Positions 255 through 64,000 are shown, numbered from the stretch's first letter. The stretch: DNA of 64,000 bases from Candidatus Peribacteria bacterium RIFOXYB1_FULL_54_35 (GCA_001787755.1 MFYJ01000007.1:76946-140945), one strand, 5' to 3'. Notes: generated by a model from the sequence alone, not told the origin. Translations and numbers: made by a program.

Positions 255-325
255 TGAAGAAGAGAAGAAAGAGAGGAATGGGGGCGTACCCCTTCCTTTT
301 TTTCCTCTTACTCTTCTGTTTCTTC
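255..325. terminator. bidirectional hairpin terminator between convergent genes; member of the purine-word hairpin family
   Basis: Core stem GGAA(T)GGGG-cgta-CCCCTTCC is followed by a T7 run. The outer arms gaagaagagaagaaagagagg / cctcttactcttctgtttcttc extend the pairing. The right arm overlaps the last codons (EETEE*) of the SLH gene. Confidence 0.6.
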
Positions 326-2808: not shown

Positions 2809-2836
2809 AGGAAACAGAAGCAACAGAAGAGTGATA
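2809..2836. repeat. half-copy of the GAAACAGA(A/G)G purine-word element directly after the rbfA stop
   Basis: gaaggaaacagaagcaacagaagagtga shares the gaaacagaagagt word string with the elements at 52678 and 255. Confidence 0.5.
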
Positions 2837-4302: not shown

Positions 4303-4319
4303 GCCGAGAGAGCGGCCTC

Positions 4320-11358: not shown

Positions 11359-11364
11359 ATTCAT

Positions 11365-11480
11365 CAGCTTGTTAGCTTTCAGCTTATAACTTCATTAGCT
11401 TCTATTAGGAAGGTACAAGATATGAGATCCAAAATCCCAATCCTAATGAAGCTAACAAGCTAATAAGCTAAAGAAGCTCG
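11365..11480. repeat. AGCT-word imperfect palindrome, copy 1 (MITE-like)
   Basis: Arms cagcttgttagctttcagcttataacttcattagc.. / ..ctaatgaagctaacaagctaataagctaaagaagct. The loop gaaggtacaagat..atcccaa matches the reverse complement of the loop of the copy at 41524. Confidence 0.7.
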
Positions 11481-40369: not shown

Positions 40370-40446
40370 GTTTGCTCGTTGACTCGTTCGCTCGTTGCTC
40401 GTTTTGAACCAGTAACGAGCAAACCAGCGAACGGGCAAACGAAGCG
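40370..40446. repeat. GCTCGTT-word hairpin, copy 1
   Basis: gtttgctcgttgactcgttcgctcgttgctcgtt / aacgagcaaaccagcgaacgggcaaacgaagc. About 18 of 20 loop-proximal positions pair. It begins 2 nt after the stop codon. Confidence 0.7.
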
Positions 40447-41523: not shown

Positions 41524-41648
41524 AGCTTGTTAGCTGATTAGCTTCTTTAGCTTCATTAGGGGCTGGGATGTTTGATTTGATTCTTTTGTACCTTTCTAAC
41601 GAAGCTAATGAAGCTATAAACCTAACAAGCGAGAGAAGCTACTAAGCT
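41524..41648. repeat. AGCT-word imperfect palindrome, copy 2 (inverted relative to copy 1)
   Basis: agcttgttagctgattagcttctttagcttcattagg .. cgaagctaatgaagctataaacctaacaagc. The reverse complement of the loop (gaaaggtacaaaag..catcccag) matches the loop of copy 1. Confidence 0.7.
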
Positions 41649-42228: not shown

Positions 42229-42321
42229 GTCATGGTGAGGTGGCCGACTGATCCTTCGAGGCTCGCTGCGCCTTCGGCTTCGCTCGCACCTCAGGATGAC
42301 AGTCGGCCCTCGAACCATGAC
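42229..42321. repeat. REP-like element GTCATGGTGAG..[GC hairpins]..CGAACCATGAC
   Basis: gtcatggtgaggtggccgactgatccttcgagg..cctcaggatgacagtcggccctcgaaccatgac lies between convergent grpE and the histidine-phosphatase gene. Confidence 0.7.
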
Positions 42322-46451: not shown

Positions 46452-46613
46452 GTCATGGTGAGCACAGAGCTTGTCCTGCTTGCCAGCCAAAGCACGGAGT
46501 GCGGCGGCCGGAGCGCAGCCGGAGGGAACCATGGCATAGCATGTCGTCCCTCGATACGTCCCGCCGCGCGCTTGCACGGAGCGCGGGATACTCGGGATGA
46601 CATGCTTGTAATG
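46452..46613. repeat. composite REP-like element (GTCATGGTGAGC..GGAACCATGGC plus a second ..CTCGGGATGAC hairpin)
   Basis: gtcatggtgagcacagag..ggagggaaccatggc, followed by gcatgtcgtccctcgatacgtcccgc..gcgggatactcgggatgacatgc. Confidence 0.65.
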
Positions 46614-46615
46614 GC

Positions 46616-46915
46616 ATGATGGGTGGAGGCTGGAACAATGCCTCCCCGCTGATGGGAGGGTGGTCAAACGCCTATGCTCCTGATACGATGTCGTCCATGA
46701 TGGGATACGGGTTCGGCTTCGCGCCCTTCGGCTTCCTCTTCATGATCCTCTGGTGGGGTTTCCTCATCGTCGCGATTGTTGCACTCGTGAAGTGGCTCAT
46801 GCGTGGTTCCGGCACACCTGGAGGGAAGACCCCGCTTAACATCCTGAAGGAGCGCTACGCCAAAGGAGAGATCGGCAAGAAAGAGTTTGAAGAGCGGAAG
46901 AAAGACCTCACCTGA
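46616..46915 (+). CDS. small membrane protein with C-terminal SHOCT domain
   Basis: One TM helix (FMILWWGFLIVAIVALV) and the C-terminal LKERYAKGEIGKKEFEERKKDL SHOCT signature. Confidence 0.7.
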   Translation: MMGGGWNNASPLMGGWSNAYAPDTMSSMMGYGFGFAPFGFLFMILWWGFLIVAIVALVKWLMRGSGTPGGKTPLNILKERYAKGEIGKKEFEERKKDLT

Positions 46916-46943
46916 AATGTCTATGAAACTCGGTGTCATCCTG
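46844..46943 (+). repeat. direct repeat 1 (SHOCT 3' end plus start of a DsrE-like gene)
   Basis: ctgaaggagcgctacgcc..gaagaaagacctcacctgaaatgtctatgaaactcggtgtcatcct. The last ~65 nt differ from 47680..47778 at only 2 positions by eye. Confidence 0.8.
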
Positions 46944-47015
46944 CATAGAACAAGCTGGGGCATGTATAGAATCAAAGAATTGGCGGCCCGCGTCGCGGCG
47001 CTGATACCGAAAATC

Positions 47016-47726
47016 ATGGAGAGCGCATCACAGGAGAATACGGCCGCTTCCGCATCCATCCCCTCGCGCGCGCACCGTCAGCAACACTGGAATCGTATCT
47101 ATGAGTCAAAGGGGCCGCAGGATGTCAGCTGGTACCAGCGCCGTCCCGACATGTCGCTGGCATGTATCGGCGCATCCGGCTTGGACAAGGATGCCTGCAT
47201 CCTTGATGTCGGCGGCGGAGAATCCACGCTTGTGGACTTCTTGCTCGATGCGGGCTACAAGCGTCTTGCCGTGCTCGATGTATCCGGCGTTGCGCTGAAC
47301 CACAGCCGCTTGCGCCTCGGCGCACGAGCTGGCTCAGTCGAGTGGTTTGAGGAAGATGTGATCTCGTTCGTGCCACCGCACCGTTTCGACCTTTGGCACG
47401 ACCGTGCGGTATTTCACTTTCTTACGACCGACGATGACCGCCGCAGATACGTCGCGACGCTGCGGAAAACTCTGCAGCCTGGCGGCACAGCCATCCTATC
47501 CACATTTGCGACGAATGGACCACCGAAATGCAGCGGACTCGACGTCATGCGTTGGGATGAGCAGTCCATCGTCGCTGAGCTTGGCGCGGAGTTTCAGCTC
47601 CATGAGGTTCACCAAGAGACCCACATCACTCCTTGGAAGTCCGAGCAGAGCTTCGTGTGTTTTCGCTTTCAGTGGAGGCCTGCAAGAACGTTACGCGAAG
47701 GGGGAGATCGACAAGAAAGAGTTTGA
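47016..47726 (+). CDS. class I SAM-dependent methyltransferase
   Basis: ILDVGGGESTLVDFLL..LAVLDVS (motif I and post-I). The start is ATG 47016 or 46962. The C-terminal ~20 aa read through the duplicated SHOCT remnant out of frame. Confidence 0.7.
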   Translation: MESASQENTAASASIPSRAHRQQHWNRIYESKGPQDVSWYQRRPDMSLACIGASGLDKDACILDVGGGESTLVDFLLDAGYKRLAVLDVSGVALNHSRLRLGARAGSVEWFEEDVISFVPPHRFDLWHDRAVFHFLTTDDDRRRYVATLRKTLQPGGTAILSTFATNGPPKCSGLDVMRWDEQSIVAELGAEFQLHEVHQETHITPWKSEQSFVCFRFQWRPARTLREGGDRQERV

Positions 47727-47778
47727 AGAGCAGAAGAAAGACCTCACCTGAAATGCCTATGAAACTCGGTGTCATCCT
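47680..47778 (+). repeat. direct repeat 2 (SHOCT-remnant plus start of the intact DsrE-like gene)
   Basis: ctgcaagaacgttacgcg..gaagaaagacctcacctgaaatgcctatgaaactcggtgtcatcct. In another frame it encodes ..ERYAKGEIDKKEFEEQKKDLT*. Confidence 0.8.
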
Positions 47779-48085
47779 CCAATCAAATACGCCGGAGCAC
47801 GTGTGGAACGCGCTGCGGCTCGCGATTGCGGCGCGGAAGGCAAAGCACGACGTGCGTATTTTCCTCCTGAGCGAGGGGGTGGAGCTTGAGCGCATTCCCG
47901 ACTCCGAGCATTTCGATATCTCCCGGAAGGTAAGGGAGTTTACTGATCTCGGAGGTCAGCTCCTTGCCTGCGGGAGTTGCCTCAAGAGCCGATCGCAGCC
48001 CGAAAGCGCAGCCTGTCCCGTTTCGACCATGGCCGATCTCCTGCGACTTGTCGAGGAATCGGACAAGGTGCTGACGTTTGGGTAA
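47753..48085 (+). CDS. DsrE/DsrF-like family protein
   Basis: MPMKLGVILQSN..WNALRLA...DVRIFLLSEGV...LLACGSCLKSR matches the DsrE-like fold pattern. Confidence 0.65.
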   Translation: MPMKLGVILQSNTPEHVWNALRLAIAARKAKHDVRIFLLSEGVELERIPDSEHFDISRKVREFTDLGGQLLACGSCLKSRSQPESAACPVSTMADLLRLVEESDKVLTFG

Positions 48086-48128
48086 TAAAATTAGGCGACT
48101 ATCCCCTGATGCATAGTAGAACCAAAAT

Positions 48129-48215
48129 GTCATGGTGAACTCTGACGCCTGCCTGCCGACAGGCAGGAACCATGACATCGGTGCCATCCTTCGACCGTGC
48201 TCGGGATGACGTGCT
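48129..48215. repeat. REP-like element GTCATGGTGAAC..GGAACCATGAC plus ..CTCGGGATGAC hairpin
   Basis: gtcatggtgaactctgacgcctgcctgccgacaggcaggaaccatgac. The inner cctgcctgcc..ggcagg palindrome also occurs at 2907..2926. Confidence 0.65.
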
Positions 48216-48292
48216 TATTATCGCTTGAGATAGCATGTTGGAATAGAATGTAATGTGTGCGGGAACCTTCTATTTCGGTATGATATTCCTAA

Positions 48293-48379
48293 GCCGAGGT
48301 GGCGGAACTGGTAGACGCGCACGACTCAAAATCGTGTGGGAGCAATCCCGTGAGAGTTCAAGTCTCTCCCCCGGCACCA
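48293..48379 (+). tRNA. tRNA-Leu (anticodon CAA), 87 nt with long variable arm and encoded CCA
   Basis: GCCGAGG..CACGA-CTCAAAA-TCGTG..long variable arm..GAGAG-TTCAAGT-CTCTC-CCCCGGC-ACCA. Confidence 0.9.
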
Positions 48380-48396
48380 GAATTCAGGAATTCATT

Positions 48397-49002
48397 ATGC
48401 ATAAAGAATATGTAAATGAGGTCAGAAGTTTTAAGAAGCTACTAGAAGCGCTGGAACCATATGTAAAGAAATTCGAACTGATGTTGAAGGAGAAGAAATT
48501 CCCAGGCTGTTCTTTAAGACCTATAGAGGTTTGGGGAAACTGGTTAATTTGCGCTGTCATTCGCAGATATATTTCGGGAGAAGTCACATTTGCTGACGGT
48601 CCGAGTGGTGATGGGATAATCGTCGACAAACGAGATGGTAGTACACGTCAAACAGAACATGTATCAGCAACAGATAACCCCTTTTCACCTAGAGATTTAC
48701 CGAGTGGCGAAAGGAGAATAATTGAAGCTATTGAGAAGAAAATTGCGTTAGGTTCCAACTATGCAGAAGGCAGTATTCTTATTGCTTTTTTTGATGGTGC
48801 AGGAGAGTGGTATAGAAATAAGGTGAGAGAAGCTATTGGTAAACATAATTTCCACAAGATTTACTTGATAGGATTATTGACCAGAGACGCGAATGGATTT
48901 GCATACTCTGTGACAGAGCTGCATGAGAATAATTCAATAACCTTTAAGGTACAGATTAACCCCGATTTTTCTCATTGGTCAGTTTCTAGGTACCCAAACT
49001 AA
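48397..49002 (+). CDS. AT-rich orphan protein, unknown function
   Basis: 201 aa. It starts 18 nt after the tRNA-Leu CCA on the same strand. One 60-nt line was counted at 38% G+C. No confident motif; the possible nuclease-like GDGIIVD..TEHV is speculative. Confidence 0.5.
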   Translation: MHKEYVNEVRSFKKLLEALEPYVKKFELMLKEKKFPGCSLRPIEVWGNWLICAVIRRYISGEVTFADGPSGDGIIVDKRDGSTRQTEHVSATDNPFSPRDLPSGERRIIEAIEKKIALGSNYAEGSILIAFFDGAGEWYRNKVREAIGKHNFHKIYLIGLLTRDANGFAYSVTELHENNSITFKVQINPDFSHWSVSRYPN

Positions 49003-49015
49003 CTGACTGAAAGTC

Positions 49016-49567
49016 TCACGGCCCCCACTGATCGTGAATAATCCCGACGAGGTACCACCCTCCATCAAACTCTTCCCATACGAGCCGCAGGCTCACCCAG
49101 TCCATCCCTCCGTACTGCGGATCGAACCCCGGGAAGTAGTACTCCACGATCTGGCTGTTCGGGTACGCATCAGACGCGTTATCTATGGAGCTCCCGTGCT
49201 CCATCTTCCGGTTCCACGTCACTTCTTTTGCCTTGGCGTAGTCGTGGTCGTAGACAAACTGGTCGTAGTAATCGGCGAAGGTGAGGTAGATGGGGGAGCC
49301 GGAGCCGTCGTGATCGCCCCACCGGTGCAGGGTGGAATTTCCCATGGCGTCTTCTATGTCCTTGGCGTAGAAGAAGATGTTCCTCCCTTTGTCCACGTAG
49401 GTGTACGGAGTGAAGGTCACGCCTTTCACGGGGTGCACGAGGCTCGCGAGCGTATCCATATCTTTCTCTTTGAGTGCTTCTATGGCTGTCTTTGCGTTCT
49501 TCTCCACGGGGCTGCCGCAGCCGGCCAAGAGGGTGAGGGCGAGGAGGGGGAGGAGGAGTTTCTTCAT
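49016..49567 (-). CDS. lipoprotein, unknown function
   Basis: MKKLLLPLLALTLLAGC lipobox. No recognisable catalytic motif. Confidence 0.5.
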   Translation of the reverse strand: MKKLLLPLLALTLLAGCGSPVEKNAKTAIEALKEKDMDTLASLVHPVKGVTFTPYTYVDKGRNIFFYAKDIEDAMGNSTLHRWGDHDGSGSPIYLTFADYYDQFVYDHDYAKAKEVTWNRKMEHGSSIDNASDAYPNSQIVEYYFPGFDPQYGGMDWVSLRLVWEEFDGGWYLVGIIHDQWGP

Positions 49568-49603
49568 GGTCTCAAGTATAGCGGAAGAAAGGTGTCATGT
49601 GAG

Positions 49604-49672
49604 CGTCGTTCTCTCGTTTGCTCGTTGGCTCGTTCCAACGAGTAACGAGTGCACGAGTAAACGAGTAACGAA
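49604..49672. repeat. GCTCGTT-word hairpin, copy 2
   Basis: cgtcgttctctcgtttgctcgttggctcgtt-cc-aacgagtaacgagtgcacgagtaaacgagtaacgaag, just downstream of the phosphoribosyltransferase gene. Confidence 0.7.
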
Positions 49673-49677
49673 GTACG

Positions 49678-50313
49678 TTACTTGCTCAGGAGTTGCAACA
49701 CTTCGGAGTCCTCGACCTGCGGGAAATCCCCGTACCAGAGCCCGACGGCGTGGAATGGGGTGGGAGTGGCGAGGAAGACGGTTTCATCTACCTGTTTTCC
49801 AAGCTTCGCAGCGGTATCCGGCGGGCAGACGGGGAGTGCCACGACAATCTTCTTCACTTTGGCGTTCTTCAGGTCTTCGATTCCTGCGAAGAGCGTGGCT
49901 CCGGTTGCCGCGCCGTCATCAGTCAGGATGATGGTCTTTCCTTCGAGGGGCGGGCGTGCTTCCACGAGGTATGCCTTCTTGCGCCGCCTGAGCTCCTCAG
50001 TTTCCTCTTTGATGATCGGCTGCATGTCTTCCCACCCGATGCCGCACATCTGCATGGTCGCATCGTCCATGTACGTCGCCCCGCCTTCGGCGAGTGCTCC
50101 CATGGCGTACTCGCGGTCCTCCGGGTGGCCGAGCTTGCGGACGATGTAGGGGTAGAGGGGGAGGGAGAGTGCGTCTGCCAGCGCGCGGCCTGTCACCACG
50201 CCGCCGCGGACGAGAGAGAGAATGATGGTGTTTTTCTGTTTGCCGTACTTCCCAAGCTCTTTGGCGAGCTGGGTGCCTGCCGCAGTGCGGTCCGGGAAGG
50301 GGAGCACGGCCAT
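49678..50313 (-). CDS. phosphoribosyltransferase family protein
   Basis: IILSLVRGGVVTG and the PRPP-binding loop IILTDDGAATGAT. ATG 50313 (MAVLPF) is preferred over 50388. Confidence 0.75.
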   Translation of the reverse strand: MAVLPFPDRTAAGTQLAKELGKYGKQKNTIILSLVRGGVVTGRALADALSLPLYPYIVRKLGHPEDREYAMGALAEGGATYMDDATMQMCGIGWEDMQPIIKEETEELRRRKKAYLVEARPPLEGKTIILTDDGAATGATLFAGIEDLKNAKVKKIVVALPVCPPDTAAKLGKQVDETVFLATPTPFHAVGLWYGDFPQVEDSEVLQLLSK

Positions 50314-50366
50314 AGCGCTTTCGATTATACTCCTCGTAGCAGATACAAGTGTGCTACGGTGCTCCC

Positions 50367-51158
50367 ATGCGCGTTGCGAGCCTCTCACCGGCGGTGACGG
50401 AGATCTTCTTTTCCTTGGGGCTCCAGAAGCGGATTGTCTGTACCGACCAGTTCAGCGATTTCCCGGAGGAAGCGAAGAAGCTCCCGCACCTGCGTGACCA
50501 TCAGAAGATTTCCGTAGAAGAACTCCTGCAGCAGAAGCCGGAACTCGTGTTCACGAGCACAGTTATTCAGGAAGGGCTCTCCAAAAAACTTAAGGCTGCG
50601 GACGTCAGCTGCATCCATCTCGATCCGCGCACGGTTCATGCCATCTACGAGAGCATCCGGCAGATCGGGATGCTGCTCCGTGCAGACAGAGCGGCGGAGA
50701 AGCTCGTGCTCTCCATGCAGCAGGGGTTCAATGCCGTGAAGAAGAAGTCGGCGCTGCTGCCTTCCCGGCCAAGAGTGTATGTGGAGGAGTGGCCCGCCAT
50801 CGCGGATGCTCAGTCGGGCAGGCTCCGCCCTCCCATGGTTTCCGGCAACTGGGTGCCGGAGGTGGTTCGCATCGCCGGCTGTGATCCTTTCCCCATTGCA
50901 GCGGGAGCACTGAGCAGGGCAGTGACACTGGAGGAGGTTCTTGCTTTTGACCCGGACATGATCGTGATCAGCTGGTGCGGGGCCGGTGCGATTGCCGATC
51001 CTTCGCTTCTCACGGGGCGGGAGGGATGGGGGGATTTGCGTGCGGTGCAGGAGCGTCATGTACGCGTGCTCGATGATTCACTGCTCAACCGTCCCGGGCC
51101 GAGGCTGGTGGATGGTGCGCAGCGCATCTACGCATGGGCGTTTGAGATGCTGCACTGA
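50367..51158 (+). CDS. BtuF/helical-backbone-type binding protein (cobalamin/siderophore-binding-like), no signal peptide seen
   Basis: RVASLSPAVTEIFFSLG..IVCTD, PELVF, and DPDMIVISWCG and NRPGPRLVDG near the C-terminus. Confidence 0.6.
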   Translation: MRVASLSPAVTEIFFSLGLQKRIVCTDQFSDFPEEAKKLPHLRDHQKISVEELLQQKPELVFTSTVIQEGLSKKLKAADVSCIHLDPRTVHAIYESIRQIGMLLRADRAAEKLVLSMQQGFNAVKKKSALLPSRPRVYVEEWPAIADAQSGRLRPPMVSGNWVPEVVRIAGCDPFPIAAGALSRAVTLEEVLAFDPDMIVISWCGAGAIADPSLLTGREGWGDLRAVQERHVRVLDDSLLNRPGPRLVDGAQRIYAWAFEMLH

Positions 51159-51298
51159 CGTTCCTTGTTTCCTCGTTCACTCGTTTGCTTGTTTTCCATT
51201 TGTCACTTGTCTCTGGTCACGGGTCAATTTTCAAAGGAAAAAGGGACAAGTGACAAGCGACCAATCGTAACAAACGAATAACGAGCCAACGGAACAAG
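51159..51298. repeat. CTCGTT/TTGTCAC-word long hairpin, copy 3 (about 60-nt arms)
   Basis: cgttccttgtttcctcgttcactcgtttgcttgttttccatttgtcacttgtctctggtcac .. gggacaagtgacaagcgaccaatcgtaacaaacgaataacgagccaacggaacaag. It starts 1 nt after the stop codon. Confidence 0.7.
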
Positions 51299-51387
51299 TC
51301 CATTGGTGTTCTCTTTCCTATCATGGGACGGCTGCTCTTAAATTCTCCGTTGAAGGTGTATGCTCTGTGCAATTCTATTTTTTCTCT

Positions 51388-52674
51388 ATGCCTGTATCCA
51401 CACCCTACACACGTTTTCAGAAAACCCTCGAGGAAGTCATGCAGAAACTCAAGCTCACTCCGAAGGAGCGGGCGTTCTTCGCAAAACCGCAGAATACCTA
51501 TAAGACGGAGATCCACATCAAACGCGATAGCGGGAAGGAGCAGGCGTTCCAGGCGTTCCGCATACAGTTCAACAACGCGCGCGGCCCCTTCAAAGGGGGA
51601 ATCCGCTACCATCCCGAGGCGAATGAAGAGGAGGTGAAGGCGCTCGCGGCGCTCATGTCCATCAAAACTGCCGTGGTAAACATCCCATTCGGCGGAGGCA
51701 AGGGGGGAGTGCAGTGCAATCCGAAGGAACTGAGCAGGAAGGAACTGGAGGCGGTCTCCCGCGCGTACGTGCGGGCGATGATCCGTCACATCGGCGCCGA
51801 TATCGACTGCCCCGCGCCGGATGTGAATACCAATCCGGCCATCATGGCGTGGATGCGTGATGAGTTTGAGAAGCAGACGCACACCTACAGCCCTGCCATG
51901 ATCACGGGCAAACCTCTCTCCTACGGGGGGTCGCTCGGGCGCGATACGGCGACGGCACGGGGTGCTTTCTTCATCCTGCAGGAGATGATGGACCGCGAAG
52001 CGCGGGATCCCGAGGAGCTCAAAGTGGCCATCCAGGGGTTCGGAAATGCCGGGGCCACTATGGCACACTTCCTCCACAACGCCGGCTACACCGTGGTGGC
52101 CGTCTCCGATTCGCAGGGGGGCGTGTACTCGCCGGAGGGTGTCGATCCGGTCCGCATAGAGAAGTACAAGCACAAGACGGGACAGGTGGCAGGGGAGTAC
52201 TGCAAGGGATCGGTCTGTGACATCAAGCGCATGAAGCTCGATGGTGTGCGCCACGTGACGAACGAACAATTATTGGAGCTTCCGTGCGATATCCTCATCC
52301 CGGCTGCGCTCGACAATGTCATCACGGCGAAAAACGCGCGGAAGATCCGTGCGAAGTACATCCTCGAGATCGCCAACGGGCCCACCTCGCCGGAAGCGGA
52401 CACGATTTTGGAGAAGAAAGGTGTGAAGATCGTCCCCGACGTGCTCGCGAATGCCGGCGGCGTGACCGTGAGTTACTTTGAGTGGGTGCAGGGGCGCAGC
52501 GGGGAGCTGTGGACTGCCGAACGGGTGGACAACGAACTTCGGCGCATCATGCTGGATGCATATAAGTCTGTTCAGAGGGAAGCGCACCGCGGCAATATGA
52601 CGTACAGGCAGGCGGCGTTCGCCGTCGGCATCCGGCGCATGGTGGATGCGATGCATGCACGGGGTTGGCTATGA
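51388..52674 (+). CDS. gdhA: glutamate dehydrogenase (Glu/Leu/Phe/Val dehydrogenase family)
   Basis: GGIRYHP, KTAVVNIPFGGGKGGV (catalytic Lys region), GFGNAGATMA Rossmann motif and VLANAGGVTVSYFEW. Confidence 0.9.
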   Translation: MPVSTPYTRFQKTLEEVMQKLKLTPKERAFFAKPQNTYKTEIHIKRDSGKEQAFQAFRIQFNNARGPFKGGIRYHPEANEEEVKALAALMSIKTAVVNIPFGGGKGGVQCNPKELSRKELEAVSRAYVRAMIRHIGADIDCPAPDVNTNPAIMAWMRDEFEKQTHTYSPAMITGKPLSYGGSLGRDTATARGAFFILQEMMDREARDPEELKVAIQGFGNAGATMAHFLHNAGYTVVAVSDSQGGVYSPEGVDPVRIEKYKHKTGQVAGEYCKGSVCDIKRMKLDGVRHVTNEQLLELPCDILIPAALDNVITAKNARKIRAKYILEIANGPTSPEADTILEKKGVKIVPDVLANAGGVTVSYFEWVQGRSGELWTAERVDNELRRIMLDAYKSVQREAHRGNMTYRQAAFAVGIRRMVDAMHARGWL

Positions 52675-52677
52675 TGG

Positions 52678-52768
52678 TGAAGAAACAGAGGAAACAGAAG
52701 AGTAAGAAGAAATAGAGGAGAAAAAAATCCTCTAATTCTTCTGTTTCCTCTGTTTCTTCTTATTCCTT
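52678..52768. repeat. GAAACAGAGG-word hairpin, copy 1
   Basis: gaagaaacagaggaaacagaaga (23 nt) has a perfect complement in tcttctgtttcctctgtttcttc. It starts 4 nt after the gdh stop. Confidence 0.75.
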
Positions 52769-52811
52769 TCAAGTTTTGACTCTCTCTCGCTCACTCTCTA
52801 CCCTATTCATC

Positions 52812-53771
52812 ATGAAGGACGTCGCAATCATCGGTCTTGGATGCGCTGCCTACACTGCCGCCATCTACACGGCGCGGTACAAGCTCTCCACGCTCATTAT
52901 CGGGGAGGAAGAAGGTGGCATGGGCATGACAGCTGCGGAGGTGGGGAACTGGCCGGGGGATCCGGAGGTCCGCGGGCCGGATCTCATGGAGAGGTTCAAG
53001 AAACACGCTACGAGTTTTGATGCGGTGGAGCACAAGGTTGCGCGGGTGGAGAAGGTTGAGAAGATCAGCGGAGGTTTCCGTCTCACGTTCCAGAGCGGAG
53101 AAACCGCTGAAGCGAAGACGGTCATCTTCGCCACCGGTTCGAACAAGCGGCACCTCGGTTTGCCCGGAGAGAAGGAGTTCACCGGGAAGGGTGTTTCGTA
53201 CTGTGCCACCTGTGATGCGTTCTTCTACCGCGGCAAAACTGTTGCAGTAGTGGGAGGGGGAGACAGCGCGGTGGAGGGTGCCGCCATCGTTGCCCAGGTT
53301 GCGGCGAAGGTCTATCTCATTCACCGCCGGGACGCATTTCGCGCGGAGCCATTTTGGGTGGAGCAGGTGAACAAGAGAGACAACGTGGAGTTTGTGCTCT
53401 CCAACAATGTCGCGGAGATCTTGGGCGATGCACGCGTGACTGCCGTGAAGCTGGAGAAGCCGTTCAACGGATCTCTTAAACTGAAACTGGACGGTATCTT
53501 CATCGAGGTCGGTACAACGCCGGCCACCGCGCTCCCGGAGCAGATGGGGTGTGCACTTGACGAGAAAAAATATCTGAAGGTGGGTGCCGACATGAGCACC
53601 AACATCTCCGGCGTCTTCGGTGCGGGTGACGTGACGAGCGGCAGCAATTATTTCGCGCAGTTCGCAACCGCGGCAGGGGAGGGGGCGATAGCTGCGAACA
53701 GCGTGTTTAGCTACCTGCAGTCTGGCGCTCTGCACGAGAAGGAGGACGGAGGAAAGAGAGTAAGAGAGTAA
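52812..53771 (+). CDS. trxB: thioredoxin-disulfide reductase
   Basis: VAIIGLGCAAYTAAIY, redox-active CATCD, VVGGGDSAVEGA and GVFGAGDV. Confidence 0.9.
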   Translation: MKDVAIIGLGCAAYTAAIYTARYKLSTLIIGEEEGGMGMTAAEVGNWPGDPEVRGPDLMERFKKHATSFDAVEHKVARVEKVEKISGGFRLTFQSGETAEAKTVIFATGSNKRHLGLPGEKEFTGKGVSYCATCDAFFYRGKTVAVVGGGDSAVEGAAIVAQVAAKVYLIHRRDAFRAEPFWVEQVNKRDNVEFVLSNNVAEILGDARVTAVKLEKPFNGSLKLKLDGIFIEVGTTPATALPEQMGCALDEKKYLKVGADMSTNISGVFGAGDVTSGSNYFAQFATAAGEGAIAANSVFSYLQSGALHEKEDGGKRVRE

Positions 53772-53834
53772 GAGGTAAGAGGATGGGAGAGTCAGGATTT
53801 GGTTTTTTTCTCTTACCTCTTATTCTCTTATCTC
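53752..53834. repeat. GTAAGAG-word hairpin overlapping the trxB stop
   Basis: gaaagagagtaagagagtaagaggtaagagg .. ctcttacctcttattctcttatctc. The left arm encodes the last trxB codons (KRVRE*). Confidence 0.65.
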
Positions 53835-53878
53835 AGCGTATTCTCTTTCTTGAGATATGGGGTGTAGACTGGTGCGCT

Positions 53879-54763
53879 ATGTGGCTGCTCTACGCGCTCC
53901 TCATGGTCCTCGGGTGGTCGCTGGCGATCGTCTTTGATTCGCTCCTTGTCCGGCACTACGAAAAAAATCCGTTCATCCTCATGTGGACGCAGAGCTGCTT
54001 CAGCATGCTCTTTCTCGTGTATCTCTCTCCGCTCGTGGTGCTCGAACCCGCGTGGATGCCGCTGCTCGCGGTCGGCGCGGTGATTGCGTACTTCGGGGAT
54101 CTGGTGTTCTTCCTGGCTATCGACCGTATGGATGCTTCTGTCTTCAACATCGCATGGGCAATTCTTGCCGTCCTCCTCGGTATTGCCGGATTCTTTCTCT
54201 TCGGAGAATCATGGACGCTCACGCAGGCTCTGGCTGCCCTCTGCATCCTGGCCGGCATCATTATTCTCTCCTACTGGCACCGCCACATCACTCCCGCCGC
54301 GTTCGGTCTGCTGGTGCTCCTCGCGTTCCTCTATGCTCCGGGAAATGTGGTGCAGAAGATGGCGCTCAATGGGGGAGTACCTCTCCTCACCATGATGTTT
54401 TGGTTCCTCCTCTTCCGGGAGTGCACGTCATTCACGTTTCCCTGGTGCATGCCGCGCTTCCGGAGGCTTATGGCGCATTTCATCGTCAAAGTGGATTTTA
54501 CGTTCGTGTGGATTACGGGGTTCGTCGTGGCGACGTATTTCCTGGGCGTGTTCTTCGCGGCACACGCGTTTGCTGCAGGACCCATTTCGCTCATTGCGGT
54601 TGTCGGCAATGTGCAGCCGTTCCTCGTGCTCTTCCTTGCCTGGGTGCTTTTTCGAATCGCTCCGCTGTACGCTTCCCGGGAACTGCTCGACTGGCAGTCT
54701 GTGCGCGTGAAGCTTGTGAGTTTCTGCGTGGTGTTTGTGGGGATGATGTTGCTGGCGGTGTGA
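53879..54763 (+). CDS. EamA/DMT-family transporter
   Basis: About 10 TM helices with two EamA-like halves. ATG 53879 is preferred because the ORF's first 32 codons are the hairpin repeat. Confidence 0.65.
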   Translation: MWLLYALLMVLGWSLAIVFDSLLVRHYEKNPFILMWTQSCFSMLFLVYLSPLVVLEPAWMPLLAVGAVIAYFGDLVFFLAIDRMDASVFNIAWAILAVLLGIAGFFLFGESWTLTQALAALCILAGIIILSYWHRHITPAAFGLLVLLAFLYAPGNVVQKMALNGGVPLLTMMFWFLLFRECTSFTFPWCMPRFRRLMAHFIVKVDFTFVWITGFVVATYFLGVFFAAHAFAAGPISLIAVVGNVQPFLVLFLAWVLFRIAPLYASRELLDWQSVRVKLVSFCVVFVGMMLLAV

Positions 54764-54770
54764 ACGGTGA

Positions 54771-54942
54771 TTAGGGTTAGGGTCAGGATGAGGGTTTGGG
54801 TTAGGGTTTGGGTTAGGAAAGATGTTTGAAATTTGCCCTTGCTCCTTGAGAAATTGAACCTGCTGAGAGCTCTAAGGAACAAATATTCAATTCTTCCTTC
54901 AAACCCCAAGCCCAAACCCTATCCCTAACCCTAGCCCCAACC
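54771..54942. repeat. GGGTTAG-word long imperfect palindrome (~170 nt)
   Basis: ttagggttagggtcaggatgagggtttgggttagggtttgggttagg .. ccccaagcccaaaccctatccctaaccctagccccaacc, with partially self-complementary central sequence. Confidence 0.7.
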
Positions 54943-54995
54943 TTCATCGGGCTTTTTCTTGCGCCTGGACGGAAAATCCGTATCCTGCGTCCGTT

Positions 54996-55190
54996 ATGCC
55001 ACGAGGGAAGCGCACAGTTTATGGCATGTTCTGTCCTGAGACGGGTATCCGGCTCGGCACCATCCGCCTGCACAGGCAGGACAAACTGGGGAAGTCGTTC
55101 AAGGAGCACGCGGCCAAGCTGAAGAAGTACTGCCCGGCCCTCAAGAAGCGCGTTGCTGTGAAGCTCAAGGAAGAGAGGCATTCTAAATAA
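54996..55190 (+). CDS. rpmG: probable 50S ribosomal protein L33
   Basis: 64 aa and basic. ..FCPETG.. and especially AKLKKYCPALKKRVAVKLKEE resemble the L33 'LELKKYCP..KKHT.HKE' C-terminus. Slightly longer than typical L33. Confidence 0.5.
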   Translation: MPRGKRTVYGMFCPETGIRLGTIRLHRQDKLGKSFKEHAAKLKKYCPALKKRVAVKLKEERHSK

Positions 55191-55198
55191 GCAAAGTA

Positions 55199-56104
55199 AT
55201 GGTCACGAAGCAGGAACGAAGGGCGGAGGCGTTCGTTTTGGGGAGTGCGGCCATTGGAGGCGGGTTCCCGATCATTGCCAACCAGGCCGTTCGCGTGTTC
55301 CCGGCGTTTGCGTTTGCCGGTATGAGTGCAGTGGTGGGGGCATGCAGTCATCTGCTTCTTCTGCTGGTGGGGCGCACACAGCTTCCACGGATCTCCAGGC
55401 AGATGTGGGTGGATTTGATGGGTGTTGCTCTCTGCAACTCTGTCTTTGCACTCGTCTTCATCTTCCTCGGGACTCAGTACACCTCCGGCATTAATACTGC
55501 GCTGCTTATGCAGTCGGAGATGCTCTTCTCTTTCCTCGTCTTCACGTTCCTCTTCGGCGAAAGGGCGGCGAAGAAAGAATATGCGGGAGCGTTCCTGGTG
55601 TTCCTCGGGACGGTCTGTATCCTCTATAACGGCTCATTTGCCTTCAATCGCGGGGATCTGCTCATTATTCTCGGAACCGTGTTCTATCCATTCGGCAACC
55701 GGTTTGCCAAGCGTGCCCTCCTGCATCTTCCGGCAAGTTTCATTCTCATGTTCCGCTGCGCCGTGAGTGCCGTCGTCTTCCTTACGCTCAGCGTTCTCTT
55801 TGGGGATTTCTCTCTCCGTGTTCTCCCGGCCGCCCGCACATACTGGTGGCTGATTGTCCTGTATGGCGTCGTGGTGCTCGTTGGTTCCAATCTCTGCTGG
55901 TACAGAGGGCTCAGGGCTCTTTCTCTCACCAAGGCTGTGAGCATTATCCTTTCCTCTCCTGTCTTCAGTCTGCTCTTTGCGGCGGTGTTCCTGAAGGAGA
56001 TTCCGACCATGTATCAGATCATTGGTTTCGTGGTGACACTTGCCGGCCTTTCCGTGCTCATCTCCAGGCGTCCTCTCCCACCTTTGCCTCCGGATCTTGT
56101 ATAG
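55199..56104 (+). CDS. EamA/DMT-family transporter
   Basis: Ten predicted TM helices with a duplicated EamA-like architecture and a FGE motif after TM4. Confidence 0.7.
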   Translation: MVTKQERRAEAFVLGSAAIGGGFPIIANQAVRVFPAFAFAGMSAVVGACSHLLLLLVGRTQLPRISRQMWVDLMGVALCNSVFALVFIFLGTQYTSGINTALLMQSEMLFSFLVFTFLFGERAAKKEYAGAFLVFLGTVCILYNGSFAFNRGDLLIILGTVFYPFGNRFAKRALLHLPASFILMFRCAVSAVVFLTLSVLFGDFSLRVLPAARTYWWLIVLYGVVVLVGSNLCWYRGLRALSLTKAVSIILSSPVFSLLFAAVFLKEIPTMYQIIGFVVTLAGLSVLISRRPLPPLPPDLV

Positions 56105-56111
56105 TGGGCCT

Positions 56112-56591
56112 ATGCAAAATAAAGGTGACAAGTACCGCCGGTGCGCATCCATCGTGCTTCTGAGGTCTTTCCCTGGCAGTGCGCGTGTTCAGGTGCTCCT
56201 TGTCCATAAGCCACGGAAGAAGGATGCCTGGCAGATCCCCCAGGGCGGGGCGGAGGATGAGGAGAGCATAGAAGAGGCAGCCATCCGTGAACTCCGGGAG
56301 GAGACAGGGGTGGAGGGTACGGTGTTCGGCAGGAGCAAGCGGCGCTACCAGTATGATTTCCCTGCTTCCTACAGGAGATTCCGGCCCGATCACGTCTGCG
56401 GGCAGTGCATTCAGTTCGTGTTTGCGCAGGCAGATCCCGCGCAGGAGGTGCACGTGGACGGGAAAGAGATCAATTCCTTCGCGTGGGTGTTTCCGGAGCA
56501 GCTCTCCCGTTACATCAAGCGGGAAGAGTACCGGAAGATCGTTGCGGGCCTTGTGGAGGAGGGGGCAGCGATGTTGCGGAGCAAGATTTAG
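56112..56591 (+). CDS. NUDIX hydrolase
   Basis: Nudix box GGAEDEESIEEAAIRELREETGV. The start is ATG 56112. Confidence 0.8.
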   Translation: MQNKGDKYRRCASIVLLRSFPGSARVQVLLVHKPRKKDAWQIPQGGAEDEESIEEAAIRELREETGVEGTVFGRSKRRYQYDFPASYRRFRPDHVCGQCIQFVFAQADPAQEVHVDGKEINSFAWVFPEQLSRYIKREEYRKIVAGLVEEGAAMLRSKI

Positions 56592-56592
56592 A

Positions 56593-56686
56593 ATGTGGAA
56601 TAGCGTATGTCGTATGTGGGGATTGTTCATTTTGGCTTTGGATTTGAGTTTTCCCGACATACGACGTTCGACATACCACATACGAC
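56593..56686. repeat. TATGTCG/CGACATA-word hairpin after the NUDIX gene
   Basis: atgtggaatagcgtatgtcgtatgtgggg .. cccgacatacgacgttcgacataccacatacgac. It starts 2 nt after the stop. Confidence 0.65.
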
Positions 56687-56735
56687 CGTTCTTCTTAAGG
56701 GTGCGGGGTCATCTCTTCTGCGGTAGGCTACCCCC

Positions 56736-57872
56736 ATGCGGCTTCTCTCCCTCGCACTCACGCAGTTCCGCTCCTATGCTTCCCTCTTCCTTGATCTCTC
56801 CCAGGGGGATGTGCATATGTTCGTTGGAGGGAACGGTGTAGGGAAAACCAATCTCCTCGAAGCGGTTTCTATCCTCTCGCTTACGCGGTCCTGCCTTGGG
56901 ACGGAAGAAGCAGATATTCTCCAGTGGGGCACAGAGTACTACCGCGTGCGCGGGGTCGTGCAGGACGATGCGGAGCAGGACTGTACGCTCGAAGTGGTCA
57001 GCCAGCAGGCGCCGCGCGTGCAGAAAGCATGTTTTCTCAACGATGTGCGTCGGCAGGTGGAAGAGATACTAGGGGTGATGCCGACAGTCGTCTTTCTTCC
57101 GCAGGAACTGCAGCTTTTCTCCGGTGCTCCGGCACAGCGCCGCAAGTTCCTCGACAGGCTGCTCTGCCAGGTCTCGCCGGAGTACCTGCTCTCTCTCACG
57201 CGGTACCAGCAGGTGCTCAGGCAGCGCAATTCCCTCCTCAGGCGCATAGCAGAAGGTGCTGCTTCTCCTGAGGATCTTGCCCCCTGGGACCGGCATCTCG
57301 TGGAGCATGGGGTTCCTGTCACGCTCGCGCGTCTTGAACTCATTGGCACGTTGCAGCTCACGCTCCCGGAGGAGGTGGCGGCGCTTGGGGAAGACTGGCG
57401 GGATGTGGAGATTCTGTATGACCGCAGGGGAAGTGCGTGCGACAGAGATGCTCTCACGGAGGAGTATTTGTTTGAGCTGGAGGAGAACCGGAAGCGCGAT
57501 TGCATTCTCCTTGCCACCGGTGCCGGACCGCACCGCGAGGACTGGCATATTGCGGTGGGGGGGCGCCCGATCCAGACCTTCGCTTCGCGCGGCCAGCAGC
57601 GCGCGTCGCTGCTTGCGCTGCTCCTGCTCCAGGTTTCCTACCTGGAACTCCGTTGCGGGGAGAAGCCGGTGATCCTGCTGGATGATGTCTTCTCGGAGCT
57701 CGATCTCAGCCACCAGCGTGCGCTCATCCAGTCACTCGGCGGGTACCAGGTGCTTATTACAACGACGCGTGTGCCAGAGGGCGGAGTCGACTTTCGTCTC
57801 TGGTCTGTTGCAGAGGGGGAGATTCATCCGATGAAAGTGCCGGTGGCCTTGCGTAGTCCATCAAAGAAGTAG
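56736..57872 (+). CDS. recF: DNA replication and repair protein RecF
   Basis: L.L..FRSY, Walker A GGNGVGKTNLLEA, and C-terminal ILLDDVFSELD. Confidence 0.9.
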   Translation: MRLLSLALTQFRSYASLFLDLSQGDVHMFVGGNGVGKTNLLEAVSILSLTRSCLGTEEADILQWGTEYYRVRGVVQDDAEQDCTLEVVSQQAPRVQKACFLNDVRRQVEEILGVMPTVVFLPQELQLFSGAPAQRRKFLDRLLCQVSPEYLLSLTRYQQVLRQRNSLLRRIAEGAASPEDLAPWDRHLVEHGVPVTLARLELIGTLQLTLPEEVAALGEDWRDVEILYDRRGSACDRDALTEEYLFELEENRKRDCILLATGAGPHREDWHIAVGGRPIQTFASRGQQRASLLALLLLQVSYLELRCGEKPVILLDDVFSELDLSHQRALIQSLGGYQVLITTTRVPEGGVDFRLWSVAEGEIHPMKVPVALRSPSKK

Positions 57873-57970
57873 AGGAAACAGAAGAAACAGAGGAATCAGA
57901 CGAAGTAGAGGAAAAATCCAAAGCATTAAATCCTCTGACTCCTCTGTTTCTTCTTATTCCTCTGTTTCCT
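57871..57970. repeat. GAAACAGAGG-word hairpin, copy 2 (between convergent recF and ruvC)
   Basis: gaagaaacagaggaatcaga pairs with tctgactcctctgtttcttc in 19 of 20 positions. It shares ctctgtttcttcttattcc with copy 1. Confidence 0.75.
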
Positions 57971-57976
57971 TGCGTC

Positions 57977-58468
57977 TCAGGCGAGGATCTGCACCATCTT
58001 CCCGTTCACCGCACCGAACACTGCGAGGGCGAGTGCATCTGCCGCGTCATCCGGCTTGGGGATTTCCGTGAGGTTGAGCAGACAGAGGAGCATGTCCTGC
58101 ATCTGCCTCTTATCGGCGTTGCCGTCGCCTGTGATGCAGGACTTGAGCTCGGGGGGGGTGGGTTCAATAATCGGAATAGCGTGCAACTGCACGGTCTGGA
58201 GAATCACGCCCCGCGCCTGTGCCACATCGAGCGCTGTTCGCTTGTTCGAGGAGAAGAACAATTTCTCCACCACTGCAATTTCCGGCTGGGATTCCAGGAG
58301 GAAGGCAGCGAGATCCTTCTGGATCTCACCCAGGCGCTCTGCGAGCGTGAGGCCCGGGGCAGTGGTGATGGTGAGCCAGTCCAGCGCCCGGAAGTACCGG
58401 CCGGACTGTGCTTCTATCAGCCCAAGTCCTACGGTTGCAAGGCCGGGATCTATGCCGAGGATTCGCAC
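57977..58468 (-). CDS. ruvC: crossover junction endodeoxyribonuclease RuvC
   Basis: MRILGIDPGLATVGLGLIE, catalytic E in VVEKLFF, and C-terminal DAADALALA. Confidence 0.9.
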   Translation of the reverse strand: MRILGIDPGLATVGLGLIEAQSGRYFRALDWLTITTAPGLTLAERLGEIQKDLAAFLLESQPEIAVVEKLFFSSNKRTALDVAQARGVILQTVQLHAIPIIEPTPPELKSCITGDGNADKRQMQDMLLCLLNLTEIPKPDDAADALALAVFGAVNGKMVQILA

Positions 58469-58565
58469 AGTATGAGCTTGCAGGGAGTTTGTTCCCCGGG
58501 CAAGGGCATCTCGTTGCTCAGAGAGCGGTTTTCTGCTACTCTAAGAGGAAAACAAGACAAAAACT

Positions 58566-60206: not shown

Positions 60207-60247
60207 TCATCGTGGAGAAGCTGAACATAGATGTTTTTATAGTATTA

Positions 60248-60256
60248 TGTTATAAT
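60248..60256 (+). promoter_or_regulatory. extended -10 promoter element TGTTATAAT
   Basis: Perfect TGnTATAAT in an AT-rich gap. It ends 7 nt before GTG 60264, implying a leaderless or near-leaderless transcript, unless the ATG at 60354 is the real start. Confidence 0.45.
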
Positions 60257-60263
60257 ACTATAT

Positions 60264-60857
60264 GTGCAGTTACGTCGAAGCGACATTGCGCGGGAGATTG
60301 CAGAGGAAGAGCCGGCAGTAGATCTGAGGGTGACGTACCAAACTCTCCTGACAATGATGGTGGGTATGCGTGCGGGTCTGCGTACGGCGGGTGGGCATAC
60401 TGCGTTACTGGGTCAGAAAGCCCAGGCTATTGTTCAACGGATAGAAGCTGCTCCGCTGGAAGATATTCTGAGCAGAACCTGGATTGATTTTGTGGAAGAG
60501 GAGGATGGTTTGGGGGCACTGACACTCACAGCGCAGGAACGTGCCTACATTGAGGCATTCCGCAGGTTGCAGGAAGCGCTGGGCTCGGGGAACATCACCC
60601 TCAATTCCCGGTCGATTGCTCATGCAGAGCAACTCATGCGTGGTGTTGGTGAAGTTCCTGCAGAAGTCGCCAATGCTGCGAAGGGCATACTACTACTCAT
60701 CGTGCGGCAGGCTGTGCGTTCCAAGCTCGATCAGGTGTATGCCATCGGCGCGTCACGAGTAGGATCTGCCGAGGGAGACCAAGCCCTGGCAGCCGTTCGG
60801 CGTGAAGTAAATCCCATTACCGCGGAGCTCCAGTCGCTGTTACAGGGCACGCAGTAG
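60264..60857 (+). CDS. hypothetical helical protein
   Basis: 197-aa ORF from GTG 60264; an in-frame ATG at 60354 is an alternative. No recognisable domain. Confidence 0.4.
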   Translation: MQLRRSDIAREIAEEEPAVDLRVTYQTLLTMMVGMRAGLRTAGGHTALLGQKAQAIVQRIEAAPLEDILSRTWIDFVEEEDGLGALTLTAQERAYIEAFRRLQEALGSGNITLNSRSIAHAEQLMRGVGEVPAEVANAAKGILLLIVRQAVRSKLDQVYAIGASRVGSAEGDQALAAVRREVNPITAELQSLLQGTQ

Positions 60858-60899
60858 CGTGCATTTCGTTCTGCTCAAAGTCGGAAGCGATGGAAAGCC

Positions 60900-61637: not shown

Positions 61638-61640
61638 AGG

Positions 61641-61692
61641 GGAGAGAGGGAAAAGTGAGAATGGAAAGCCATTCTACGGTTTTCTCTCTCGG
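61641..61692. repeat. GAGAGAG-word hairpin downstream of tRNA-Ile
   Basis: gagagagggaaaag-tgagaatggaaagccattctac-ggttttctctctc, with nested stems agaatgg/ccattct. Confidence 0.5.
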
Positions 61693-61737
61693 GAAAAAGA
61701 GGGCGAGACACTATGTTTTTATGCTGTCGAGATTGAA

Positions 61738-61814
61738 TGGTGGGCGACCGCAGACTTGAACTGCGGACCTCGACATTATCAGTGTCGCGCTCTAACCAGC
61801 TGAGCTAGTCGCCC
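61738..61814 (-). tRNA. tRNA-Ile (anticodon GAT), 77 nt with encoded CCA
   Basis: GGGCGAC-TA-GCTC-AGCTGGTTA-GAGC-G-CGACA-CTGATAA-TGTCG-AGGTC-CGCAG-TTCAAGT-CTGCG-GTCGCCC-ACCA. Confidence 0.9.
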
Positions 61815-61964
61815 GTGATGTGAATGATAGAAAAAACGGCCGGGTTCACTCCCTCAGGAAGCCAGAACACAGTACGTATTGGAGGGATATTGGTCAATAA
61901 ATAATGGGATTGTTATCCCTGCAGGATTTCATGCATTTATTTCATAGATTGATGCTTGAGCATA

Positions 61965-63242: not shown

Positions 63243-63388
63243 GGTGCATTCAAGAAATATTCCGGCGGAGCCGGCTGTTCATTGAACTGTAATTATAATC
63301 AATATGATATGTTTGTCAAACTTTTTACTTCTTTGTCTTCATGGTTTGTTTTGGGGGTGAAAAGGAACCTTCACATGGCCCCAAAACA

Positions 63389-63416
63389 TTGATAAAAACA
63401 AAAAAAATTGTATGAT
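63389..63416 (+). promoter_or_regulatory. sigma70-like promoter (TTGATA - 16 nt - TATGAT)
   Basis: -35 TTGATA at 63389..63394 and -10 TATGAT at 63411..63416 in an AT-rich gap. ATG 63426 lies only 9 nt past the -10 element. Confidence 0.45.
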
Positions 63417-63425
63417 ATACATCCT

Positions 63426-63983: not shown

Positions 63984-64000
63984 CCCGTGTCTCCCGGCGC

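Follow-up and report, generated by a model that had tools for sequence, protein, structure and literature searches.

We analyzed a 64,000-nt window (the whole stretch of DNA studied here; 56% GC) from Candidatus Peribacteria bacterium RIFOXYB1_FULL_54_35 (GCA_001787755.1 MFYJ01000007.1:76946-140945), an uncultured groundwater bacterium of the Candidate Phyla Radiation (CPR), whose spacers between genes hold long hairpins with arms made of short reiterated words. The focal element (51159..51298) is one of several such sites listed in a preliminary description of the sequence. According to Pfam scans of most large open reading frames (ORFs) and the gene calls stored with the assemblies, the genes of the window are mainly housekeeping ones (argS, fmt, rbfA, Mur ligases, gdh, trxB-like, recF, ruvC, and grpE), and type IV secretion genes are also present. 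None of the scanned ORFs has a transposase, integrase, or RAYT-type domain. The RecF protein of the window is encoded identically in assembly GCA_001789085.1 (contig MFYL01000013.1), and locus L164 of that contig is 100% identical to the window over 46736-64000. For the thioredoxin-reductase-like gene, the closest species-level relatives are metagenome-assembled Candidatus Peribacteria and Peregrinibacteria genomes.

The elements are imperfect palindromes of 50-190 nt, with arms that are degenerate tandem arrays of 6-9-nt units. Folding of all the listed sites gave a long stem-loop at each, with stems of 20-70 pairs of mixed composition and loops of 3-100 nt, and the energies were far better than those of 200 dinucleotide-preserving shuffles for the elements both as RNA (z = -3.5 to -9.2) and, with DNA parameters, as DNA (z = -4.0 to -7.8); the strongest stem of the set is that at 52678. 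A gapless inverted-repeat scan calibrated on shuffles found eight repeats with scores of at least 13.5 in the window (range, 13.5-24.5) and a single one at that score in eight shuffled windows pooled. The longest inverted repeats of the window all fall at sites named in the preliminary description, the account of which as long imperfect palindromes is borne out by these results. The score replaced a local minimum-free-energy scan and a left/right duplex scan that were dropped: at 56% GC, stretches of 200 nt fold well wherever they are taken, and neither scan could separate the hairpins from the background. A search of the whole window against Rfam 15 returned only three tRNAs at the gathering score, and none of the hairpins matched.

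The repetitive nature of the arms, also claimed beforehand, was recovered by Tandem Repeats Finder, which detected arrays of period 6-9 at 40372, 49613/49637, 52728, 53754/53809, 54771/54902, 57871/57931, 11449, 41537/41596, and 56655. Arms shifted by one or more units stay mostly complementary (29/34, 31/42, 23/33, and 19/24 positions at 52678; 35/49, 31/43, and 30/44 at 54771), and the pairing in several registers that had been proposed therefore holds. The focal element is compound, since its outer CTCGTT-type arms (~51159-51197 and 51257-51298) surround an inner hairpin (~51198-51262) built on a different 7-nt word, TTGTCAC/GTGACAA, in which TTGTCAC-TTGTCTC-TGGTCAC pairs with GGGACAA-GTGACAA-GCGACCA. 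A run of T after the stem had been attributed to the element at 255 only; this is roughly right, but a loose filter for hairpins followed by T also accepts the tips at 52678 and 61641.

Table 1. Repeat-armed hairpins and related elements of the window (z, RNA folding against shuffles)
Position	Element	Location	z
255..325	Purine-rich-word hairpin, GAAGAAAGA / GAAACAGAGG type; G5-C4 tip, T7 run	Between convergent genes; overlaps stop codon of SLH-domain gene (308-1564, -)	-3.8
2809..2836 (+)	Unpaired half-copy, GAAACAGAAG-type tandem array without complementary arm	Adjoins rbfA stop	
11363..11480	AGCTTNTTAGCT-word hairpin, loop ~45-70 nt	Between convergent genes; starts 5 nt past stop of + gene, ends 4 nt short of stop of - gene	-4.5
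40370..40446	GCTCGTT/AACGAGC-word hairpin	Between convergent genes; 1 nt past stop of 39727-40368 (+), 38 nt short of Na/Ca exchanger (-) stop	-4.9
41524..41648	AGCTTNTTAGCT-family copy	Divergent spacer, not a gene end; 25 nt to Na/Ca exchanger start codon, 46 nt to grpE start codon	-3.9
42229..42321	Related, non-repetitive hairpin, GTCATGGTGAGG...CCTCGAACCATGAC	Between convergent grpE and histidine phosphatase gene	-5.2
49604..49672	GCTCGTT-word hairpin	5 nt downstream of phosphoribosyltransferase (-) stop	-3.5
51159..51298	Focal element	Directly after periplasmic-binding-protein stop codon (51156-51158)	-3.7
52678..52768	GAAACAGAGG/CCTCTGTTTC-word hairpin; U-rich 3' arm	3 nt after glutamate dehydrogenase stop	-9.2
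53752..53850	GTAAGAG/CTCTTAC-word hairpin	Thioredoxin-reductase-like gene end	-5.6
54771..54948	GGGTTAG/CTAACCC-word hairpin, loop ~90 nt	7 nt after EamA-family stop	-4.5
56593..56686	TATGTCG/CGACATA-word hairpin	1 nt after NUDIX gene stop	-4.9
57862..57972	GAAACAGAGG-family hairpin	Between convergent recF and ruvC; overlaps recF stop codon, ends ~5 nt short of ruvC stop	-6.7
61641..61692	GAGAGAG/CTCTCTC hairpin	46 nt downstream of tRNA-Ile (-), 3 nt upstream of SIMPL-family gene (-) start codon; no stop codon adjacent	-4.2

All eight strong inverted repeats are intergenic, in a window of which only 11.4% is intergenic (P = 3e-8). Most of the listed sites (11/13) overlap a stop codon or lie within 7 nt of one, and four of these are flanked by convergent genes. 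In each of the six spacers between co-directional genes, the hairpin overlaps the upstream stop codon or stands 0-7 nt from it, with 7 to ~250 nt left to the next start, a closeness that exceeds random placement within the spacer (Fisher combined p = 3.3e-4). Between 49.6 and 58 kb, seven consecutive ends of functionally unrelated genes carry one hairpin each. The distribution is patchy, and the gapless scan found no strong inverted repeats between 12 and 37 kb. The statement that all sites are at gene ends is correct for these 11, but not for 61641, between tRNA-Ile and the start of a SIMPL-family gene, nor for 41524, which had been assigned to a gene end by means of an ORF antisense to the Na/Ca exchanger gene and has two start codons as its true neighbors.

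At least eight different words are used within the 64 kb. By eye, they fall into a purine-rich group (GAAACAGAGG, GTAAGAG, and GAGAGAG) and a G+T-rich one (GCTCGTT, GCTTGTT, GGTTGTA, GGGTTAG, TTGTCAC, and TATGTCG). The preliminary description spoke of a different word at each site, of unrelated sequences, and of an architecture unlike that of REP or MITE families; the first two are overstated and the last is not supported. The elements at 52678 and 57871 align collinearly, their non-repetitive inner part included, those at 11365 and 41524 are homologous copies in opposite orientation, and the TATGTCG family, to which the hairpin at 56593 belongs, has another copy in the variant strain L172 (1566-1656), between divergent genes; the loops are apparently homologous in two of these three pairs, including 11365/41524. 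The GCTCGTT word is found at three sites of the window and in a mini-hairpin of the relative L081, where it immediately follows the stop of an extra ORF. Since same-word sites are collinear, they constitute small dispersed families rather than unrelated sequences, and they are present or absent depending on the strain. A further family of hairpins (~95 nt), non-repetitive and with the core ATGTCGTCC(C/T)TCGA, is found at 42229-42321 and, in a divergent spacer, at 46529-46614 of the window and at 2916-3012 and 6713-6828 of L081; its loci differ between the two, and one L081 copy occupies the position of the window's 49604 element.

For the comparison of strains, we used L081 (91-97% nucleotide identity) and L161 (~98.6%). 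Over 17.45 kb, the latter differs from the window by 6 indels and 248 substitutions; hairpins account for 4.6% of this sequence and contain four of the indels. At the focal site, L161 is missing a segment of 138 nt (51169-51306) with no convincing target-site duplication (at most a 3-nt TGT), and in L081 the stop codon of the binding-protein gene is followed instead by a hairpin of the word GAGGGGA/TCCCCTC, past which come the extra ORF, the GCTCGTT mini-hairpin, and another member of the non-repetitive 42229 family. The position of 49604 is taken in L081 by a different, non-repetitive hairpin between identical flanks. The hairpin at 52678 is kept there with 2 substitutions; both of its arms contain the same block of 22 nt, shifted by one 9-nt unit (read from the sequence by eye). 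At 53752, L081 has only a 13-bp outer stem and the window is ~60 nt longer at the tip. The thioredoxin-reductase-like coding sequence supplies the 5' arm of this hairpin with its final part, stop codon (53769-53771) included, and the extra 3' arm repeats the last codons and the stop of that upstream gene almost exactly, in inverted form; the spacer is not alignable in relatives further away. The gene start of the EamA family also differs by assembly here (window 53783, giving 326 aa, versus 53879, giving 294 aa): the longer call starts within the 53752 hairpin, and the ATGTGG at 53879 is the start seen in relatives.

The hairpin at 54771 exists as three alleles (window, L081, and L161) differing in unit number. 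Those of L081 and L161 are exactly one 6-nt unit apart in the 3' arm, and the allele of the window is longer again, by 12 nt in the 5' arm and by 19 nt in the 3' arm, and shows a compensatory change (GGGTTTGGG/CCCAAACCC versus GGGTTAGGG/CCCTAACCC). The 5' arm of this hairpin (54771-54817) is built of 7.8 (TTAGGG)-like units, (GGGTTN)n, in an array similar to vertebrate telomeres, and is a canonical G-quadruplex motif. The proposal that slippage plus palindromization generated the elements is supported by the one-unit slippage, the compensatory change, and the growth of both arms at 54771, as well as by the offset block at 52678 and the longer tip at 53752. Among the orthologous spacers between the thioredoxin-reductase-like and EamA-family genes, L006 has a repeat-armed hairpin of the word GATTAGGT, L001 and L004 have unpaired word arrays, L084 and L085 have GC-rich stems, and others have little structure. 

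Unpaired arrays that adjoin stop codons and have no complementary arm were seen in L001 (~10940-10990; GGATAAC x3), L004 (~10994-11030; GAAAATG x4), and the window (2809-2836; GAAACAGAAG), and they may be precursors or remnants of palindromes. Gene content also varies at the strain level. In L081, extra ORFs flank the periplasmic-binding-protein gene (3647-4979 and 5806-6845), and beyond truB the first 5800 nt of L172 and L170 hold different gene sets, with an MmeI-like restriction-modification gene in L170. The region 3' of tRNA-Leu (48293-48379) is unalignable between the window (48380-49015, 640 nt) and L081 (1296-2338, 1043 nt); it falls in the part of lowest GC (0.507) of this half of the window, and some assemblies call in it a 249-aa ORF, overlapping the tRNA, with no Pfam match. 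This stretch may be an integration hotspot.

Other Peregrinibacteria, Moranbacteria, and Falkowbacteria have repeat-armed hairpins as well, and so do loci labeled Deltaproteobacteria and Chloroflexi/Caldilinea; given these last occurrences, they are not specific to the CPR. Half of those in other taxa (17/34) have period 7, and the same number (17/34) have their core no more than 20 nt away from the stop that closes a long open frame. The GGGTTAG word also forms a hairpin in another Peregrinibacteria genome (L006 13704-13762). The density of strong inverted repeats is no higher in the CPR loci than in those of other bacteria, which have ordinary terminators. In the literature on Peribacteria and the CPR we found no description of such hairpins, the Peribacteria genome paper does not mention them, and we found no paper addressing how CPR bacteria with small genomes punctuate transcription.

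The closest precedent is found in Xanthomonas campestris and X. axonopodis, where arrays of the heptamer GGGAATC form 70-75 convergent inverted pairs per genome that are intergenic, mostly overlap a stop codon or lie within 50 bp of one, and seldom occur between divergent ORFs; close relatives differ in the length of the arrays but keep the single or paired type, and they have no known function (Rehm et al. 2015, PMC4692102). The same work also covers Nostoc PCC 7120, where the repeat is GGGGA(C/T)T, and mentions heptamer repeats in Calothrix. The elements of the window are likewise arrays of ~7-nt units (periods 6-9) inverted on opposite strands, they are intergenic and within 50 bp of a stop codon (11/13; the exceptions are sites 41524 and 61641 and, beyond the window, two further copies), and they vary in array length while keeping their type, as the three alleles of 54771 do. 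However, Xanthomonas uses one G-rich quadruplex word genome-wide, with G-quadruplex formation as the main concern of that study, whereas of the words found here only GGGTTAG is quadruplex-capable, and here the arms are more degenerate and the loops longer. Further differences are the many words in a single genome, the nested hairpins, the dispersed families, and the gain, loss, or replacement of whole elements between strains.

Long simple-sequence repeats with units of 5-11 nt and an excess of heptamers are known in prokaryotes (Mrazek et al. 2007, as cited in PMC4679880 and PMC4692102), and the excess has been ascribed to polymerase slippage (summarized in PMC4679880). Our elements share with them the unit size, the intergenic location, and slippage as the proposed origin, but those repeats are direct arrays, and palindromic pairing and abutment to stop codons are absent from their description in these summaries. 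The heptamer repeats of Calothrix and Nostoc are named STRR.

Stem-loops without a U-tract are found at the 3' ends of transcripts in many bacteria, both Rho-dependent and Rho-independent, and long stems without U-tracts have been reported in Actinobacteria (PMC13613805). Like these stem-loops and intrinsic terminators, the hairpins are directly downstream of stop codons, convergent genes included. As had been stated, though, they are unlike ordinary intrinsic terminators: their stems have 20-70 pairs instead of 5-14 and are not GC-rich, their loops reach 100 nt instead of 3-8 nt, their arms are repetitive, and the U-tract (~7-9 nt in intrinsic terminators) is mostly missing, so that a canonical intrinsic terminator was rejected on stem size and composition and on the U-tract. 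With REP, BIME, REPIN, and MITE elements they have in common that they are small dispersed families of intergenic palindromes, often at gene ends, and some of those elements stabilize mRNA or terminate transcription. They differ from the REP/REPIN type (a palindrome of 20-40 bp) in being 50-190 nt long and in having, by inspection, no shared GTAG or CGTC head, on which ground this class was rejected. Also in contrast to REPs and MITEs, their arms are tandem arrays of variable unit number, and neither a RAYT-type or transposase domain in the scanned ORFs nor a convincing target-site duplication was seen; of the traits looked for in MITEs, collinear copies are present.

The explanation that we favor, with slightly more doubt than belief, is that the palindromes are made and remodeled at the DNA level, are kept mostly after stop codons, and act there as probable 3'-end stem-loops. 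Symmetric arms, slippage, and the copying of families suggest that the elements are generated at the DNA level. Each element consists of a degenerate 6-9-nt tandem array, a loop, and the inverted complement of the array; either arm would gain or lose units by slippage, and one arm would be copied inverted onto the other by fold-back or template switching, the latter being a plausible origin of the palindrome, with the order of variant units staying mirrored. Fresh hairpins would form at the tips of existing ones, and whole elements would be copied to other spacers to give small families. The elements turn over within the species and survive almost solely in spacers. Placed against a stop codon, as in co-directional and convergent spacers, an element would give the transcript a long stem-loop at its 3' terminus, which would terminate the upstream mRNA, shield it from 3' exonucleases, or do both. 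Since a palindrome is identical on both strands, it would act in both directions.

A role at the 3' end of transcripts is, with moderate confidence, the most likely reason that the elements persist where they are found. The abutment to stop codons, the convergent sites, and the series of gene ends at 49.6-58 kb point to such a role, as do the recurrence of some hairpin at the same gene ends in relatives, the near-chance level of canonical terminators (hairpin-plus-T matches are slightly above shuffle expectation: 29 versus 20.8, 21 versus 15.4, and 28 versus 17.7), and the stem-loops lacking a U-tract that are known from transcript ends of other bacteria (PMC13613805).

Several observations weigh against this explanation. 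Most elements lack a U-tract, and where L161 lacks the focal segment its spacer has no comparable structure (z -1.9). Of 15 elements of the same species, 3 are in the middle of a spacer between divergent genes (41524; L170 5643-5727; L172 1566-1656), where there is no transcript end, and 1 is against a start codon, which leaves a strict link to gene ends unsupported; the enrichment in nondivergent spacers is not significant (p = 0.23). As a hold-out, we took ~19 kb of the same species flanking the window. Its 10 kb upstream (~12 genes) have no repeat-armed hairpin, and its downstream part has one (word GGTTGTA), that of L170, in the center of its spacer. With copies of this kind in divergent spacers, the association with stop codons is strong but not exclusive. 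There is no bias between sense and antisense folding energy, nor between G.U and A.C among the mismatches of the sense strand (20 versus 18), most mismatches being unpairable in RNA too, and without strand bias in energy or mismatches these tests do not separate a role in RNA from one in DNA. Finally, a textbook bidirectional intrinsic terminator, AAAAGCCCCGC-N4-GCGGGGCTTTT, is found between convergent genes ~2.4 kb past the end of the window (L162 19623-19672, equal to L170 6836-6885), so the organism has at least some canonical terminators.

Some of these same observations would be expected if the elements were neutral or selfish hypermutable DNA, produced by slippage, inverted duplication, and recombination and tolerated past the stop codon as the most permissive zone, with no function. 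We regard this as rather unlikely. It would account for elements that are present, absent, or replaced among strains 91-99% identical, for the sense strand without G.U bias and the copies in divergent spacers, for the patchiness (seven consecutive gene ends at 49.6-58 kb have one, while the region 12-37 kb and the 10-kb hold-out are empty), and for the lone unpaired arrays after stop codons in the window, L001, and L004. Yet the placement at 0-7 nt is tighter than tolerance predicts when 40-260 nt of room are free (the p value of 3.3e-4 given above), complementarity has been retained through compensatory change and matched arm growth, and relatives carry some hairpin at the same gene ends despite a different sequence.

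The role at transcript ends can be extended into a bolder proposal, which we consider clearly doubtful: palindromic short-repeat hairpins might be the main transcript-end signal of Peribacteria and several uncultured lineages, reborn repeatedly from local sequence. Such rebirth would draw on whatever lies at hand, the last codons of the upstream gene included, by slippage and fold-back copying.

It is quite improbable that the hairpins are nonautonomous mobile elements of the MITE or REPIN kind, mobilized by an enzyme encoded elsewhere for which the word is the binding site. Same-word sites are collinear in either orientation, the 138-nt presence/absence at the focal site is clean, and the swapping of one hairpin type for another in place suggests targeting of existing hairpins. 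But the Pfam-scanned ORFs offer no enzyme, there is no clear target-site duplication or fixed terminal motif, unit number and length vary among copies, and many words coexist in only 64 kb. Still less probable is a function as DNA structures, either cruciforms absorbing supercoiling between transcription units or G-quadruplex/i-motif elements. The good folding with DNA parameters, the symmetry at the DNA level without RNA-strand bias, and the central position of the copies in divergent spacers, where negative supercoiling accumulates, are compatible with it, and the (GGGTTN)n arm at 54771 recalls the quadruplex motifs of the Xanthomonas and Nostoc repeats (PMC4692102). Against it, a quadruplex is possible for one word of the window only, and the abutment to stop codons is left unexplained. 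Extrusion of cruciforms is, moreover, disfavored by imperfect stems and by loops of 30-100 nt such as these.

We give practically no credence to an integron cassette array with the hairpins as attC sites. These sites conserve structure rather than sequence, measure 55-140 nt, and directly follow cassette ORFs, and the layout at 50.3-58 kb is superficially similar, but the genes are housekeeping ones (gdh, trxB-like, recF, and ruvC), hairpins are also found between convergent and divergent genes, and attC was rejected for having neither RYYYAAC...GTTRRRY core sites in the required orientation nor an integrase in the Pfam-scanned ORFs. An artefact of assembly, conceivable in a metagenome-assembled genome, deserves as little, being excluded by the identical hairpins of five independent, near-identical assemblies (L162-L166) from several samples and pipelines, and the diverged L081 has the 52678 element with its 2 substitutions.

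Between rbfA and a DHH-family gene, 519 nt (2809-3327) have no gene called in three assemblies and contain two strong GC-rich stem-loops (2934-3006 and 3128-3198) with no Rfam match even at E <= 1; this may be an undescribed structured RNA. A gene of 1970 aa (22278-28190, -) contains 144-nt (48-codon) tandem repeats at 25908-27272, in two blocks of 2-3 copies 77-88% identical, and a gene with a cupredoxin domain has a GAT/GAA-rich tandem repeat (39407-39502; periods 18-39 nt) that encodes an acidic low-complexity stretch. A CIRCE operator (TTAGCACTC-N9-GAGTGCTAA) was rejected for the hairpin upstream of grpE, with no match at up to 3 mismatches, and TIGR and CRISPR arrays were dismissed on architecture alone, the window having single hairpins of 6-9-nt units and not interspaced arrays.

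Whatever their function, the elements are hotspots of strain variation and candidate strain markers, and gene callers run ORFs into them, as with the EamA-family gene that was given two start codons across assemblies. If they are functionless, they would clearly exemplify how palindromic repeat arrays can spread through a reduced genome and would still extend the unexplained heptamer pairs of Xanthomonas to many words and several phyla. If instead they act at the 3' ends of transcripts, the birth, growth, shrinkage, and replacement of gene-end hairpins would be visible here, since intermediates (unpaired array, short outer stem, nested hairpin, and unit-number alleles) can be seen across strains, and they would tell how a CPR bacterium with a very small genome punctuates transcription. 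Were the broader proposal true, these hairpins would be a self-renewing source of bidirectional terminators that need neither a conserved sequence nor a U-tract.

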